Virus record (IMG/VR): IMGVR_UViG_3300046001_006524
Coordinates: 5,205 to 69,204 of that record
Length of the DNA: 64,000 nucleotides
Origin: a virus
Reading direction: 5' to 3' (one strand)
Part shown: positions 3,431 through 63,611 of the stretch, piece after piece
Numbering within the stretch: the stretch's first letter is position 1
How the letters are laid out: every line of letters starts with the position of its first letter
Program-made: the position numbers and the translations under genes
The notes under the pieces: generated by a model
Told to the model about the DNA's origin: nothing
The model's input: the letters and a program-made list of their open reading frames with translations, nothing else
The model's database searches: none

Positions 3431-3749
3431 CAAACAAACAAACGAAGTTGCGATATTCAGACAACAACAAATTACTAAAAAGCAAGAGGATGATAAATTA
3501 AAAATTATCGCCATACAAACATCTTTGATTTTCGTAATGAAAAGATTAGACGACAAAACTCTTGATATTAAATTAACTACCGAAGCAATATTTGAAACTT
3601 TCTCAAGGATGCCATTAGAAAACATAAAATTAGCCATTAAAAACGGTTCAACAGGAAAATACGGTAGAACATATAAATTAACAACCCAAGAAGTTTGCTA
3701 TTGGATTCGGGAATTTATTGAAGAAGATGTAAAATCAAGGGAATTATGA
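3420..3749 (+). CDS. hypothetical replication-module protein (possible helicase loader)
   Basis: Overlaps the initiator stop. Function inferred from position only. Confidence 0.45.
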   Translation: MDSNKQTNEVAIFRQQQITKKQEDDKLKIIAIQTSLIFVMKRLDDKTLDIKLTTEAIFETFSRMPLENIKLAIKNGSTGKYGRTYKLTTQEVCYWIREFIEEDVKSREL

Positions 3750-4195
3750 AACCGTTTCAACAACTAAAAAACCTAAAACGAATAATTAAGGATATGGAAA
3801 ACGATTTGCCATATTCTAAAAACCAGTTAAAAGATGGTAGTCGATATAATGACCTTATAGACGTACACGATTGCTTCGATGGTATGTTGGTATCAAAATG
3901 TAATACGGATGCCTCAGAAACGCTTATTTATGCCTTAATCTACGAATTACTGATGACTTATAAAGCGTATGAACAAGAAATACCATTACCAGAGATTATA
4001 AAAACCATAGATGACTGTTTTACTTACGGTGTAAATCCTAAAAAACAAGAATGTATTTCTATTCTAAAACATCACGAATTGACTAATAAAATTAAGGATA
4101 ATAGCGTGTTTGATGATGATTATGCGGATTTTAATAAAATGCTAACAGATTTAGTAACAGATTTTAAAACAAATATCCAATATGCAAAAAGTTGA
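3746..4195 (+). CDS. hypothetical phage protein
   Basis: 149-aa ORF overlapping both neighbours. Confidence 0.55.
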   Translation: MKPFQQLKNLKRIIKDMENDLPYSKNQLKDGSRYNDLIDVHDCFDGMLVSKCNTDASETLIYALIYELLMTYKAYEQEIPLPEIIKTIDDCFTYGVNPKKQECISILKHHELTNKIKDNSVFDDDYADFNKMLTDLVTDFKTNIQYAKS

Positions 4196-5024
4196 TTTAG
4201 CCTCATTTGCGCCAAAAATTGAAGTGAAAACCAACTTCAAATTAATGCTTGAAAAGACATTTGTTGATGTTACGGCAAATCTTAAAAGACCGCCATTAGC
4301 ATTGTCAATCGGAGATACGATGATGGGGCAAGAAAGATACTATGTAGAATTTGGAACATTTGGGAATTTTAGTGCGTTGGTAGGTGCTTCAAAATCTAAA
4401 AAAACATTCTTTAAATCGCTTTTGGTTGCGAGTTTTATAGGTGGAAATGCTAATAATTATGCGCCAAATATCCTATCACACAGAAACAAAGATATGTATG
4501 TTTTAGACTTCGATACAGAACAAGGAGAATGGCACTCACAACGAGCATTTAAAAGAGTTTCGCAAATTACTGGAGATTATTACGAAATGTATAAACCGTT
4601 CTATTTAAGGGAATATAGCTTTAAAGAAAGATTGGAATTTATTGAGTATTGCATCTTAGAAAGTGAATTTAGAAATAATTTAGGTTTTGTGGTTATTGAC
4701 GGATTTGCCGACTTGGTTGCTGATGTAAATAACCTTGAAAGCGCAAACCATTTAGTGCAGAAATTACTTAAATGGACTGAAATAAGCAAATGTCATTTAA
4801 CGGGCGTAATTCACTCTAATTATGGCTCTGACAAGGCTACGGGAAGTTTAGGTAGTGCTATATTAAAAAAAGCTGAAACGATTTGTATTTTGAATGTGGA
4901 TCAAAGCGATAAACTAATCACAAATGTAACTTTTCCGCAAACAAGGGGATTTCAAATAGATGATTTTTCATTCAGAATTGATGGTAACGGATTGCCAATA
5001 ATAGAAGATAATAGTAACTTTTAA
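4182..5024 (+). CDS. RecA-superfamily P-loop ATPase/helicase (AAA_25-like)
   Basis: Walker A variant GASKSKKT, FDTEQ, Walker B VVIDG, and VIHSN..GSLGS..KKAET. Confidence 0.8.
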   Translation: MQKVDLASFAPKIEVKTNFKLMLEKTFVDVTANLKRPPLALSIGDTMMGQERYYVEFGTFGNFSALVGASKSKKTFFKSLLVASFIGGNANNYAPNILSHRNKDMYVLDFDTEQGEWHSQRAFKRVSQITGDYYEMYKPFYLREYSFKERLEFIEYCILESEFRNNLGFVVIDGFADLVADVNNLESANHLVQKLLKWTEISKCHLTGVIHSNYGSDKATGSLGSAILKKAETICILNVDQSDKLITNVTFPQTRGFQIDDFSFRIDGNGLPIIEDNSNF

Positions 5025-5040
5025 CAATAAAAAAAACACT

Positions 5041-5259
5041 ATGAGAAAAACAACAAACAAAACAAACTATAAAGTAATTTATAGATACTTCGCAAGAAAT
5101 AGCGAAAGACGATTAACAAATTATACCGATTTGTTTTACACAAAAGACGAAGCGTTTACTTGGTACGAAAATTTTGGTCAGCATTTAGAAAAACGATTTG
5201 GCAGAACCTTAATTTTCAAAGAATCAAAACTTCAAATTAGTAATTTACAAATAATTTAA
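5041..5259 (+). CDS. hypothetical phage protein
   Basis: 72-aa ORF in operon. Confidence 0.5.
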   Translation: MRKTTNKTNYKVIYRYFARNSERRLTNYTDLFYTKDEAFTWYENFGQHLEKRFGRTLIFKESKLQISNLQII

Positions 5260-5801: not shown

Positions 5802-8800
5802 TTATTGACCTCTTTTTGGTCTGTTATCTTGTTGCCCTCGTCTTTCTCTGCCTTGACCATTTGGATTCGCTGGAATTTTAACTTTTAAAGGTATGTACTC
5901 CACTCCTAACCTTGCTGCTTCTGCTCTGTAAAATAATTCATCATCTTTACTTTTCTCGGCATTTTCAGTTTTAGTTTTCGCTTTTTCCTCTTTGGTTTTT
6001 TCTTCTTTATATTCGGGATTACGTTTGCTCATTAAAATTTGCAATTCGTTTTTACTCATAGGTGTTTGACCGCCATAAACTCCCGTATTCCAACCAAACG
6101 CAGAAACAACAGTTAAGAATTGCGCTAATGCTCCTGGGTCTTCATTTTTGATTTCCTTTATAGCATCCCAATACATCGGTTTAATGTTTGCAATAGAATT
6201 TTCATCGTCATAATCTTTACCAAATGGTGTCATTCTAACCATTTCACCCGTTTCGGGGTTAAGTTTTTCTTTAGTTGAAAAATAGTTTACCAAACGAGAT
6301 GCTGAAGGTGCTAATTTATTTCTCCCAAATGAACTTACTAAATCTAATCTGTTTTGTTGCCCAAATCTTTTATCAGCCAAATCTTCTACTTTACCATCTT
6401 TTGTACTTTTCACTTGCTCTGTAATTAATCTTGCCATTAAAACTAAAACACCCATTTGACCGTGAAATAAATCCCAACGAATATTTCCAATTTTCAGTTT
6501 CATAAAATCTGAACTTCTTGGATCGGTTTCAATAGTTGCAACATCTTCATCGTCATCATCTTTTCCTGCTGCAAATTTTAAAGCGATTAGTGTTGCGCCA
6601 GTAATAGTTACAAATCGCATCATATTGTACATTGCCAATTTATTTGCTACTGATGTTTTTTTGAATTGTGCGCCATCGGTAGATGCAAAATGTAAATAAC
6701 CATAATAAATCGGATTCACTTGATTAATAACGGCAATAGCATTTTTAGCCGAGAAAAATATTACTGACAACGCTTGTGTATTTGTAGCAAGTGCTGTTGG
6801 TAAATTTGCCCTGCCCGACATTGTATTAATCGCATTTGCCAAAAGTTTATAATCTTGCAAATGGTCAATTTCATTTTTACCTTCCATTCTTAACATTTCC
6901 ACACCTCTTGCAAATTCTTCTATACGAAGTGTGTTCATATATAGCGTAGAACCTCTTTCTAATGCTCTGAATGGATTTATATTCTTCCATTGTTGCTTTG
7001 TACTCACTTTGTCTGTACCTATCTTTCCTAAGCCTGTTAATCGTTTAAATGGATTTAGGATTATATCGCCAAGTACAGATTTTTGAATGTTAGATAATTT
7101 TGTGCCTTTTTTAGATGCACCCGCTAAAGTAAATGGTAAATCCCAAGCAAAGTTCGCATAATCTCCCGTATAATTTTCTTCTCTTACATCAGATTTATAA
7201 TCAGGATTTGCTAAGGCTAATTTCGCTTTCATTGCTAAAGGATAATCAGGATGCGCTTTAATCATAGCAGCCATTTGATCTGATTTTTTTGCAGAACCAA
7301 TAGCTGTAAATAATTTACCCATAATTTTAGCCAACTCCTTAGGGTTTGTAAATTTCCTTGAAGTAGTTAAAATACCACCCTGAATTAAAACCGTAGAAAG
7401 CTCACCCGTTGCTCTTAAAATCCTTTCAATATTCCAAACCTCTAAAAGTCCGTCTAAGAATTTTCTTCCTAAACTTCTGTTTTTTAATTCGTCTTGATAT
7501 TTTTGAGCATCGAATATTTCTTGTTGCAATAATTTTTCTGCCCTTAATTTTAGCAATTCAGCATCTTCCCTTAATGGTCTTACAACTTTTTTAGCATATT
7601 CTTTAGCTTCAATCTTTCTTTTTAATTCTGTAATTTGATTTTTAACACGATTTTTAGTCGTTTTCATTCTTTGCGCTTCAACCAAACCTGCTTCAGCTCG
7701 CATATCATTCTTAATTTCAGTTAAGGCTTTCTTTTGCGCTCTTAATTCAGTAAGTTTATCAGATTGTTTTGCGTCTGGTCTTGTTTTAAACTCAACTTCA
7801 CCACTTGCAATTTCTTTTTGCAGTTTTTCAATAGATAATTCTAAAGATTTTTCTGCTCTTGCAATTAATTCTTCTTCCGTTAATTCAGGTTTACCAACCA
7901 ATTCATCTAAAATCTTTTTCTTAGCATCACGTATCGCTCTTAATTCTTTTGCTTCATCATCAAGTTTAACGGGATTTCTTTCAATTTTACGCTTTTCTCC
8001 ATTGGCAATTTGCTTATCTAAATCTTCAATTTGATTTTTAAGTTGTGTTTTTGCTCTGTCTAATGCAGATGCCCACTCTCTTTCTAAATCCGCTTCACTA
8101 AGTCCAATTTCTTTTATAAGTCTGTTTATTTCTTTACGCATTTCGCGCATTTGTTGCGTAGGTTTTGCACGTTGTAAACCACTTTTTAAAGGTCTAATTC
8201 CTTGTAAAGCATCTTCGTAAGCCGAAATTAATTTACCCACGATTTTAAGTCTTGACATTTCCGCTTGGACTTCATCTCTACTTGGATTTATTCTTTTCCC
8301 GTAACCCGTAATTGCATCACGAATATCTCTAATGTCAGCATCAGGAAATTCATCGGCAATATCTTCTTTAATTAAACCTGCAATAACGTCAATATCGGTT
8401 TCGCCTTGCTCTACATAATCTCTAAATAGTTGCGTAGGAATTACAATATTTCCTTTTTTGCCTATTTTTACGGTTGAAAGTTGAGTGACGCTAACGTCAG
8501 ATTTTCCTCCAGCTTCTTTAAATAATTGCGGTAAATGTTTTCTAACACCTTTACCTAACTCTTTTAATAACTGTTTTGAGAAATTATTAAAATCACCTTT
8601 AACACTTTTGAAGGCAAGTTGTAAATATCTTCTGAATTTTGGGTCGGCTAATAATGTAGCTACTCTTGTAATATCGTTAAAAACACCAAATAATTCCCTT
8701 CTTATTTGATTATATTCTGCCGTTTCTTCTTTTGTTAATGCCGATTTTGATTTTGAATCTTTTTTATTTGCCTTATCAATATCATCTTTAATATTTTTAA

Positions 8801-52795: not shown

Positions 52796-53083
52796 TAAAT
52801 AGTGTTTACTGCCGTTAATTATTTTTTTTTAGTTTCTATAAATCCATCACATATACCATCTTTAAATTCAAATTGATTATACCATTGATGTTCTGTTGGC
52901 TCTGATACGAATCGGTAACATTCGTATTTTAAAGGGCAATTATCGTTACTGCATTTTGTTTTTCCCATTACTTCGGTTTGTTTAGATTTGCTATTACTTC
53001 TTTTGCTTGTTCTTCTGTGTGATGTTCTACGGTAATATTATATCCCGCTTCTGTTGGAAATACGAATGTTGTCATCTTTTTTT

Positions 53084-53332
53084 TCATTGTTTTTTTAAGT
53101 TTCTGTTTAATATTTTAATCAATTTTATCAATTCGCTATATTCAAATATTTCAAAATGGTCATAATCTAAAAAGGTTACTACAAATTCACACCCTTTCTC
53201 ATTTGCCATAAGACATAAAGAAAACTCTGCACCAAACTCTAAATGATAATATGAATATGGCAAATCACCACTTTCCTCTGCCGAAATATCTACTCTACTA
53301 AATCCTGCCTTTATTATCTCGTTTTCGGTCAT
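53084..53332 (-). CDS. hypothetical protein
   Basis: 82-aa ORF. Confidence 0.5.
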   Translation of the reverse strand: MTENEIIKAGFSRVDISAEESGDLPYSYYHLEFGAEFSLCLMANEKGCEFVVTFLDYDHFEIFEYSELIKLIKILNRNLKKQ

Positions 53333-53407
53333 TATTTATATGCTTTTGCACTTGTTGTTTACGGTTTTACTGACTTTTTGTGATTTGCTATATGAAAAAA
53401 CATATAA

Positions 53408-61949: not shown

Positions 61950-62177
61950 ATGGCAGAATCAAAATTACCGTTAGAAAAAAGAGATAACACAATAGGACTT
62001 GAGGCTCTACAAAAAAAGCAAAAAGCACTTGCAAAATTAAATTTAGAATTAGGCAAAGAAGTAGAAAAGTCCAGGAGATTAAAAGGTTTTATTTGGGTTG
62101 GCTTAGGAAAAACGCAAAAACAGATCAATCCGAAACATTTAAAACGACATTTGCTTGAAAAGTGGTTTTTGATTTGA
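61950..62177 (+). CDS. hypothetical basic protein
   Basis: 75-aa ORF directly after the HTH gene. Confidence 0.5.
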   Translation: MAESKLPLEKRDNTIGLEALQKKQKALAKLNLELGKEVEKSRRLKGFIWVGLGKTQKQINPKHLKRHLLEKWFLI

Positions 62178-62240
62178 ATTTCCATCAGCCTAATATAAAC
62201 AGTAACTATAATGAATATGAACTTTTAAAAACGATAAATT

Positions 62241-62387
62241 ATGAAATTAAGATGGAAAATATTACTGACCTATAAAGGCGATTGGTTAATAGGTGAAAAA
62301 AACGAGTATAAAAAAGTATTACAGTATCAAAATACAGAAGGGGAAGAATGGACTGAAGTTGAAGTTGTAGGCGTAGATAGTTTTTAA
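62241..62387 (+). CDS. 48-aa protein inside segment A1
   Basis: MKLRWKILLTYKGDWLIGEKNEYKKVLQYQNTEGEEWTEVEVVGVDSF; the stop lies in the right inverted repeat. Confidence 0.55.
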   Translation: MKLRWKILLTYKGDWLIGEKNEYKKVLQYQNTEGEEWTEVEVVGVDSF

Positions 62388-62565
62388 TTGTTTATATGCC
62401 GTAGTTGGTAAATGTTTGGGGGCGTTAACGCATTATAAGTAAGTAAAGCAATAAAGCGAAGTAGTTAAAAACCGATAGGAAAAGTACAAGAAAATCAGCC
62501 CATATATTTTACAACTAAATAGAGCATAATTAGTTGCGTATAAATTAACTTAAAACATAATAAAA

Positions 62566-62706
62566 ATGGATTTAAAAGAAGTACAAAAAATAATAGAAAA
62601 ACTTGAAATGTTTAGATATGAAAATGTTTATACAAGTGAGCAAATAGAAAAAGACAAAAACTCTTTAAAAAAGCTAAAACAAGCAATTGATTATGCGCAT
62701 AGTTAG
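62566..62706 (+). CDS. 46-aa protein inside segment A2
   Basis: MDLKEVQKIIEKLEMFRYENVYTSEQIEKDKNSLKKLKQAIDYAHS; reads through the inverted repeat and stops at GTTAG. Confidence 0.5.
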   Translation: MDLKEVQKIIEKLEMFRYENVYTSEQIEKDKNSLKKLKQAIDYAHS

Positions 62707-62975
62707 TAGCTTTTTAGGAACGGTTAAAACATAGACAACAAATAAGACATTAAGTCTATGTTTAAAAATAGGTTTTGTAAAAATGTAAATCAGCCTAAAT
62801 TGCTACTAACGAACCCGGCTATGAGCCGTTTCAATGGCTTTTAGCCATTGTTGGAAGAAGTCTTTTTAGGCTTCTTAAACGGATTGTAGCCGGGTTCGTT
62901 GGAAGGAATCCTGAAAGGATTCCTTCCAACTGTAAGCGTATAAAATTAGATTTTAACAAATAAAAAACAAACATT

Positions 62976-63266
62976 ATGGAATTTGAAAAAAACATAAAAA
63001 GTAAATTACTAATGAGAGGATTTACACAAAAACAGATACTGAACAATAGAGGTTTAATAAGTGCTGTTATAGATGAAACAATACTTTTACAGACCAAAAA
63101 TTTAATTTTATGCGAAGTTAGCCGAAGTAAGCCAATTAAAGAAGATTTCATTTATAATGTTAGCGACCAACATATTTATATTGAACAAATGAATAAAGGG
63201 CGTTTGCAAGATATAGACAGATATTTAGATTTAACACAAACTGTCGAGGATAAGACAATAGGCTGA
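62976..63266 (+). CDS. 96-aa protein spanning segments A4 and B4
   Basis: The junction peptide NLILCEVSRS is encoded by the inverted repeat and GTTAGCCG site. Confidence 0.55.
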   Translation: MEFEKNIKSKLLMRGFTQKQILNNRGLISAVIDETILLQTKNLILCEVSRSKPIKEDFIYNVSDQHIYIEQMNKGRLQDIDRYLDLTQTVEDKTIG

Positions 63267-63320
63267 AATTAGTGGCTTATTACGGCTAACTATTAATATC
63301 AAAACAAAACCAAAACTTAA

Positions 63321-63569
63321 ATGAACTCAATTACAATAACTTATCGTTTAATAAAGCAATTTAAAACGCATAATCATATACAATTATCCGATTGCGGAAA
63401 GTATTTTAACATTAAAAGTTCAAAAGAGATTAAATTGAAAGTTTGCGGAAGTTCTATTGGTATTTGGCTTGATCCAAAAACATTCCTAATTAAGTCTAAG
63501 ATAAAAGATAATTTAGAATTGATACCTAAATATCAAACTTACCTAAATGATATTCTTACAAACTTATAA
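63321..63569 (+). CDS. small basic protein terminating the cassette array
   Basis: 82 aa, QLSDCGKYFNIKS..GSSIGIWL, beta-rich and basic. Confidence 0.6.
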   Translation: MNSITITYRLIKQFKTHNHIQLSDCGKYFNIKSSKEIKLKVCGSSIGIWLDPKTFLIKSKIKDNLELIPKYQTYLNDILTNL

Positions 63570-63573
63570 GCAC

Positions 63574-63611
63574 AAAAAAAAACGGTAGTCATTAATTTGG
63601 CTACCGTTTTT
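63574..63611. terminator. bidirectional intrinsic terminator
   Basis: A9-CGGTAG..CTACCG-T5 between convergent genes. Confidence 0.8.

Follow-up and report, generated by a model that had tools for sequence, protein, structure and literature searches.

Organization of the Segment Array

The window analyzed here, a stretch of 64,000 nucleotides (nt), comprises bases 5205–69204 of a 69,204 base pair (bp) circularly assembled virus record (IMGVR_UViG_3300046001_006524; hereafter G000), the ends of which repeat over 127 bp. Our subject is an array at positions 62086–63291 of this window, a gap-free chain of stem-closed segments with 0–8 nt between neighbors, found at the end of a block of small plus-strand genes. 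Two kinds of segment make up the chain. Each of the four A segments is a hairpin placed after an AAC and before the GTT that follows, its stem set off by about 6 nt on the 5′ side and 2–4 nt on the 3′ side. The four B segments start with GTT, end with AAC and carry private complementary sequence at their very ends. An initial annotation of this DNA had described eight segments bounded by AAC and GTT; every repeat that it quoted is present where it was placed, and the eight-segment layout is confirmed.

All segments are given here on the plus strand. Segment A1 (62213–62399, inverted repeat I3) has 20 nt arms around a loop with a 48 amino acid open reading frame (ORF; 62241–62387). Arms of the same family occur in contig L005 and in phage genome G001, so that three unrelated ORFs are framed in three phages. 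A2 (62522–62698, inverted repeat score 14.6) holds a 46 amino acid ORF (62566–62706) in its loop. A3 (62811–62897) is a gene-less hairpin with a three-way junction, lying flush against AAC and GTT; its inverted repeat, I1, is 33 nt long with the flanking AAC/GTT included, and an arm homologous to that of A3 (GGCTATGAGC) was found in G001 and in a further phage genome, G002. The loop of A4 (62937–63114, inverted repeat I6) encodes the start codon and residues 1–46 of a 96 amino acid ORF (62976–63266). This ORF crosses the A4/B4 junction, and its C-terminal half is encoded by B4 (63117–63290, GTT to TAAC, inverted repeat I5), where the GTT serves as a Val codon and the stop codon precedes the 3′ arm by 6 nt. 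The three ORFs are thus as first annotated, and the genes do sit inside hairpin loops.

The remaining B segments encode no protein. B1 (62404–62515, 112 nt) and B2 (62702–62810, 109 nt, inverted repeat I9) are gene-less GTT to AAC segments, and B3 (62898–62930) is an empty frame consisting of arms only, a perfect 15-3-15 hairpin (I10, 100% complementary). A model of these segments, R1, scores B1 at 91.3 bits on the plus strand vs. 7.3 on the minus strand, and B2 at 85.5 vs. 19.1. When R1 was run with cmsearch over the whole window with default filters, it missed its own training sequences B1 and B2 (91 and 86 bits), which were found with the filters off. With filters off it also returned a weak GTT to AAC segment, B0 (62086–62200; 18.3 bits, E = 0.012), over the C-terminal part of a 75 amino acid ORF (61950–62177); 13 of the 16 end positions of B0 pair, and it has an ATCAGCC motif at 62184. 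This motif occurs seven times on the plus strand of the genome and never on the minus strand (1.9 expected), and three of the seven copies (62184, 62494 and 62789) are directly ahead of AAC ends. In its longer form, ATCAGCC(Y)AWAT, it sits just inside the 3′ arm of gene-less B segments. A similar CCAGCC lies upstream of a GTTA in the cultured phage filifjonk9-1.

Folding, Strand Bias, and Covariation

All eight closing stems are present in both the minimum-energy fold and the centroid fold of the plus strand. The plus strand folds at −233.4 kcal/mol (z = −8.9; 0 of 20 shuffles as good) and the minus strand at −185.2 kcal/mol (z = −8.6), so the plus strand is better by 48 kcal/mol. A genome-wide scan for inverted repeats returned seven pairs scoring at least 16, against 0–4 in ten shuffles, and four of the seven lie in 62799–63291. 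At scores of at least 14 the genome-wide excess is small (13 observed vs. 5–12 in shuffles). Many of the mismatches in the repeats were described initially as G-T on the top strand. Counts from the array zones of four phages bear this out, with 66 G:T vs. 23 A:C mismatches (p = 6e-6); outside the zones the figures are 268 and 305. The plus (sense) strand is the strand selected to fold.

Covariation, a further prediction of the initial annotation, is found in two helices. For the B helix, in 13 gene-less B copies from six contigs, 84.6% of cells are paired vs. 68% in shuffles and 35%–52% in slid controls. Ten of its 17 pairs are changed on both sides, and its covariation of 0.434 (vs. 0.123) was reached by none of 500 shuffles. 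The counterpart of B4 in L005 likewise has compensatory arm changes, around an unrelated 40 nt interior. The A helix was counted in frames around a conserved N-terminal domain at nine loci; two of 11 sequences (G000_A4 and L157) were dropped because an indel shifts their register, and each pairs in its own register. Here 90.4% of cells are paired (slid controls, 29%–50%), with seven of 22 pairs changed on both sides. This helix joins an arm in the 5′ untranslated region (UTR) to an arm in codons ~40–46, and residues such as GIA, AIH, TIP and RIA change along with the leader.

The foot of the helix is constant. In 39 GTT to AAC frames the first three pairs (G-C, T-A and T-A) are invariant (39/39), and 26 of the frames carry a G.T wobble at position 11, about one helical turn from the foot, against three at most at any other position between 1 and 15. 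We considered whether the repeats are chance products of AT-rich sequence, or plain transcription terminators. The genome has a G+C content of 32%, and the small excess at scores of at least 14 would suit chance. That explanation is refuted by the z score of −8.9 against shuffles, by covariation in two independent helices and by the position 11 wobble and the invariant triplets, as well as by conservation of the layout in at least 14 contigs (below). No T run follows the stems. We give this explanation a negligible probability.

Other pairings are available to the same sequence. The stem of A3 can be lengthened into the arms of B2 and B3 (62799–62831/62877–62909), and A3-internal GTTGGAAG can pair with the 3′ half of B3 (62850–62874/62906–62930). 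Adjacent helices may compete with each other.

The Same Grammar in Other Phages

At least 14 further phage contigs follow the A/B grammar, as do cultured Flavobacterium phages (Muminvirus) and Polaribacter phage P12002L. A pattern built on the ends of B1 recovered true copies from the viral contigs L005 and L009 (L009 being G001). A second route was the 82 amino acid ORF that follows the last AAC of the array (63321–63569, plus strand), which led to G002, L010, L013, L014, L149 and L150, the last a contig of a Bacteroidales metagenome-assembled genome (MAG). A/B alternation is seen in every contig found by either route. Elsewhere in their genomes the phages have little in common: G001 shares no ORF with G000 at E = 1e-5, and G002 shares seven. 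B1 is nevertheless 91% identical between G000 and G001. The 82 amino acid ORF is 87%–95% identical in G002, L005, L010, L149 and L150, and is absent from G001, although G001 has frames. This pattern suggests cargo rather than a component that the system needs. It has no Pfam match, and its AlphaFold model has a predicted local distance difference test (pLDDT) score of 51.

A methylase of G002 led to the cultured Flavobacterium phages. In filifjonk9-1, GTTA...TAAC arms of 14–17 nt enclose each of seven genes, including four methylase genes. Over L168:1–6400 of this phage, five DNA methylase genes follow one another as separately bracketed units. P12002L has the layout TAAC-N5-arm...arm-N3-GTTAGGC, with a GTTAGGCAC...GTGCCTAAC bracket around a methylase gene, and has methylase DNA in common with a Muminvirus array (87% identical). 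Searches of the cultured phages with blastn gave no match for the region, and tblastn gave none for the 75 amino acid ORF, the 82 amino acid ORF or the 46 amino acid N-terminal half. Single-protein scans of viral contigs with the 96 amino acid ORF and with the integrase encoded past the window (below) returned no relative, and the 3′ arm of B1, taken as an exact 22-mer, had no match in metagenome contigs. A loose pattern, TAGTT..ATCNGCC..AACTA, was discarded as giving chance matches, since a paired stem was present at none of 80 loci among the matches listed.

Movement of Units

Movement was followed by comparing contigs and by inspecting an assembly graph. Contigs L158 and L161 have one whole unit in common (hairpin, N-terminal domain, GTT, C-terminal half and TAAC; 92% identical), and the likeness stops at TAAC on both sides of the unit. 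Between filifjonk9-1 and the phages mumin9-2 and tooticki6-1, the backbone is 99.6%–100% identical and whole bracketed units differ; three indels in filifjonk9-1 end at TAAC (1271–1769, 3531–5111 and 5896–6307 of L168). In run X1, a lake-water metagenome that contains 99% of the sampled words of this DNA and may be its source, the assembly graph branches at the 3′ arm of B1 and at both ends of A3. A3 and B3 occur with different flanks on another X1 contig, and run X2 contains a copy that is ~92% identical. Ahead of the 82 amino acid ORF stands one of four distinct B segments or a methylase gene; in every case the likeness starts at TAAC|TA. These junctions indicate that the ORF is a mobile module. 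Over all contigs, 32 of 65 homology ends fall within 6 nt of an AAC end vs. 28% at random, and a second group of ends lies just after GTTAG. The initial annotation had held that a fixed segment order, or breakpoints away from GTT and AAC, would speak against shuffling; the order varies among relatives, and the ends cluster at (T)AAC and just after GTTA.

A unit can be defined from these comparisons as an A segment plus a B segment. It starts after an AAC and runs through about 6 nt, a 17–22 bp hairpin (A), 2–4 nt and a GTT segment (B) to a terminal (T)AAC. The A loop is small or contains a gene or an N-terminal half, and the first and last 14–20 nt of B are complementary. Related phages differ by the gain, loss and movement of whole units, whose ends lie at TAAC, and by the exchange of halves near GTT. 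Frames may also be empty, as with B3 in the window and an A frame with a 2 nt loop in L150. Judged from contig comparison, this is a real and conserved array that is mobile, has site-specific ends and recombines its halves.

We saw no inverted copy of any module, and all homologies run in the same direction. A system of invertible segments was dropped for that reason. Shufflons and other intragenic invertible segments resemble the array in producing alternative C-terminal ends by DNA rearrangement at intragenic repeats; unlike them, the array has yielded no inverted module, and its strong strand bias argues against frequent flipping.

Split Genes

A search of 1.84 billion representative proteins gave 134 relatives (clusters) of the 96 amino acid ORF. 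In nearly all of them the match is confined to residues 1 to ~45–58, which the A4 loop encodes, and is followed by an unrelated tail. In P0002 the C-terminal half is 90% identical and the N-terminal half is different; P0033 is likewise, at 44%. N-terminal and C-terminal halves thus occur in different natural combinations, as the initial annotation had supposed. The junction LCEVSRSKP, encoded by the 3′ arm of A and the 5′ arm of B, is kept. The shared part is an unnamed domain of ~45 amino acids (window 62976–63113; P0003–P0134) with the pattern K.KLL.RGF....LLNNRGLIGA.IDET and no Pfam match. In most cases it is N-terminal and the tails vary widely; in some it stands C-terminal to a different conserved part.

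The exchange is also visible in DNA. Across the A frame, L154 and L155 match at 99% identity; from ~25 nt after GTTAGC they can no longer be aligned. G002 and L014 have identical B arms around unrelated in-frame cargo of equal length. At four of ten loci the terminal TAAC supplies the stop codon, TAA. Among 17 loci with the N-terminal domain, an A bracket scores at least 14 in nine, L151 has a partial bracket, and seven have none above 11.1; a following B frame scores at least 11 in seven of ten loci tested. Programmed ribosome hopping across the junction was dropped, as no matching take-off and landing codons were seen by eye.

Comparison with Integrons and Recombinase Searches

The initial annotation proposed a phage cassette-shuffling system built on attC-like sites. 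The evidence supports this claim in part: units and halves are shuffled among relatives. Membership in the attC/integron family is not supported, and we do not regard the array as a classical integron: no IntI was found, the core sites of the window fit the consensus in none of five cases for GTTRRRY and none of five for RYYYAAC, and the genes lie in hairpin loops. One RYYYAAC and no GTTRRRY are present in the whole region. The core-site consensus does fit in some relatives, namely L152 (GTTAGGC/GCCTAAC) and P12002L.

Several features are shared with classical integrons. In both, only AAC and GTT are invariant and the rest is defined by structure; in the array the triplets are conserved with little other conservation, and neighboring pairs covary. 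In both, one strand folds, here as an imperfect hairpin on a preferred strand, judged by the G:T excess and the R1 scores. Units end at the triplet, the cassette's own ends are complementary, and promoter-poor accessory genes stand in tandem arrays. In contrast to integrons, the array has no IntI or attI that we could find, its end complementarity is 14–20 bp rather than 7, its loops span 140–475 nt with genes in them, and the genes are on the folding strand. An attC site is ~57–141 nt long with a small variable loop. A3, at 87 nt (~101 nt with its triplet boxes), is the closest of all segments to attC in size and falls within that range, whereas A1, A2 and A4 are about 177–200 nt with ORFs in their loops.

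Clusters of attC sites without integrase (CALINs) have been described in phages, 17 of them in 10,705 phage genomes, and IntI1 recombined five of six phage sites tested, P12002L_attC2 included (Qi et al., 2023; PMC9892861; Front Microbiol 14:1091391). As in the arrays described here, the phage CALINs are rows of genes, often DNA methylases, parted by AAC...GTT hairpin sites in virulent phages that lack IntI (Qi et al., 2023). P12002L itself has the TAAC-N5-arm...arm-N3-GTTA layout and the methylase bracket. Genes in hairpin loops, split genes, end complementarity of 14–20 nt and the position 11 wobble go beyond that account, as far as the consulted part of it extends. For Muminvirus, methylase content was linked to plating efficiency on different hosts in the sections of the report consulted (Nilsson et al., 2020; PMC7077304), whose main text does not contain the words cassette, hairpin or integrase. 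In the literature on gene-bracketing repeats and small inverted-repeat elements in phages, we found no description of the layout.

Candidate enzymes were sought with the IntI-like recombinase or HUH nuclease of the initial annotation in mind, and neither emerged. The window contains no integrase, as that annotation stated; a tyrosine recombinase of 429 amino acids is, however, encoded on the minus strand about 1 kb beyond the window end. It has weak XerD matches in NCBIfam and none to an integron-integrase model at E = 0.01. No IntI integrase and attI were found next to the array, no Y1 transposase (PF01797) was found in three phage genomes (G000, G001 and G002), and families of ribonuclease (RNase) III and reverse transcriptase gave no match in the same three. 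These absences are weak evidence, because the PF00589 search of genomes missed G000's own integrase, and the blank for G001 is correspondingly weak. A retron or diversity-generating retroelement was dropped, no reverse transcriptase having been found in the three genomes.

The members of the IS200/IS605 family, and the palindrome elements derived from them, are strand-specific and hairpin-guided and insert beside a fixed tetranucleotide; IS608 inserts 3′ of TTAC and has subterminal hairpins. The units could on that model be non-autonomous single-strand transposons, moved by a host HUH (Y1) transposase and inserted 3′ of TAAC, each unit end supplying a new target and so giving tandem arrays. 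Strand-specific folding, the stacking of units in tandem, tetranucleotide-defined ends beside hairpins with a conserved non-Watson-Crick position, and the lack of an encoded recombinase in the cultured phages are all consistent with it. IS200/IS605 ends are, however, two separate local hairpins, whereas here both ends of a unit pair together in one helix, and G000, G001 and G002 gave no Y1_Tnp match. No host copies were found, in what was the sole host-side search (the Bacteroidales MAG G003, with R1 under filters that lose the window's own B1 and B2) and is uninformative. We consider this explanation unlikely.

A Proposed Integron-like Cassette Array

The reading toward which we lean, as somewhat the better bet, is that the region works like an integron cassette array, though we do not count it among the integrons. 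The folded single strand would be the substrate of a structure-specific recombinase that cuts and joins at AAC, as IntI does at attC, and cutting and joining there would stack units in tandem. An N-terminal module would be joined in frame to various C-terminal modules, with GTT supplying Val and the TAA of TAAC the stop codon. The recombinase may be encoded by the host, because the cultured carriers have no annotated integrase. On this reading, the array is part of an integron-like system present in phages of Flavobacteriia and other Bacteroidota.

Several observations count against this reading. The arrays have no recombinase linked to them: of 27 loci, only L165 and G002 have a relative of the 429 amino acid recombinase near an array, that recombinase has the weak matches noted above, and filifjonk9-1 has no integrase annotated. 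The core sites of the window do not fit the attC consensus. The 65 homology ends are not mutually independent. Cargo is replaced within conserved arms: B1 exists in four versions with the same arms and different interiors, and the A1-type frame also exchanges cargo inside conserved arms. Not all exchanges are therefore at AAC, and a single GTT/AAC crossover point is insufficient. The strand bias and wobble pairs fit RNA at least as well as DNA, and A loops of 140–475 nt that hold genes are long for a DNA hairpin and ordinary for RNA. Finally, the arms fall within 5′ UTRs and coding sequence, and their spacing from start and stop codons is fixed.

The last of these points bring in a serious rival, to which we assign a lesser though real probability. 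The stems might act only in mRNA, closing a domain around every cistron, half-cistron or spacer so that host RNase III can cut there, ends are protected or starts are insulated, with the shuffling being ordinary phage recombination that uses the arms as short homologies. The sense-strand bias and conserved G.U pairs would be expected, as would loops of 140–784 nt enclosing whole genes in the manner of rRNA processing stems. The ATG follows the 5′ arm by ~20 nt, so that the loop includes an A-rich leader. Helices of 17–22 bp on the sense strand at cistron borders amount to about two turns of double-stranded RNA, as RNase III processing helices have. Cargo is swapped within conserved arms, and the genome encodes a putative RecT-like protein and a putative exonuclease, as read from ORF translations. 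RNase III stems such as those of 16S/23S rRNA and T7 early mRNA share the helix length (~17–22 bp), the small internal loops, the position at cistron borders and the tolerance of G.U. An RNA role alone leaves unexplained the invariant GTT/AAC of 39 of 39 frames, the fixed N6 and N2–4 spacing, and unit ends at TAAC without homology beyond. Unlike RNase III stems, the stems here are in some cases within reading frames (the A4/B4 junction; gp010), where cutting would destroy the message, the helix foot is invariant, and the units are mobile. No phage RNase III was found in the three genomes, by a type of genome search that missed G000's own integrase.

A bolder version of the cassette-array reading is possible, if on the doubtful side. 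It would be a DNA-level system resembling exon shuffling in phages of Flavobacteriia, in which in-frame folding sites join one N-terminal domain to many C-terminal cassettes by way of a non-IntI recombinase that reads a helix in which a G.T wobble lies one turn away from the cut; its products would be two-part small proteins, perhaps for counter-defense.

The usual view of integrons is of a bacterial device dependent on IntI. In the array, the site logic of integrons (invariant AAC/GTT, a folded single strand and pairing cassette ends) appears in phages of Flavobacteriia in which no IntI was found, in a system that would move DNA methylase genes and halves of small proteins. If true, this would explain the spread of accessory and counter-defense genes among phages that share nothing else, and would point to an undescribed recombinase or an RNA-level function. 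Cultured phage–host pairs exist (Flavobacterium sp. LMO6 and LMO9), which makes the question directly testable.

Genomic Setting

Three minus-strand genes lie beyond the window end, ~1 kb past the array. They encode the 429 amino acid tyrosine recombinase (L003:414–1703, 287–1576 bases past the window end; domains Phage_int_SAM_5 and Phage_integrase), an 89 amino acid helix-turn-helix protein and a 114 amino acid ORF. The group runs convergent to the array and is probably the phage lysogeny module. The idea that the array is the attP of the neighboring integrase was dropped, there being no evidence either way and no attP site identified. A GC-rich hairpin with a T run (63578–63611, assigned to neither strand; inverted repeat I18, 14 nt, 93% complementary) divides the array from this convergent integrase module. 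No tRNA was found in the region, and Rfam gave no credible family match for it at gathering or permissive thresholds.

A recurrent G(Y)GTAGATGGCTT occurs at or just past the ends of ORFs, 25–35 nt ahead of the next GTT. Its sites are at 62366 in the window, at 6968, 8468 and 9206 in L005, at ~1245 in L014 and at ~140 in L149. Two more long-range inverted repeats lie among minus-strand genes of the window, at 52914–53073 (score 16.9) and 53255–53393 (score 15.3).

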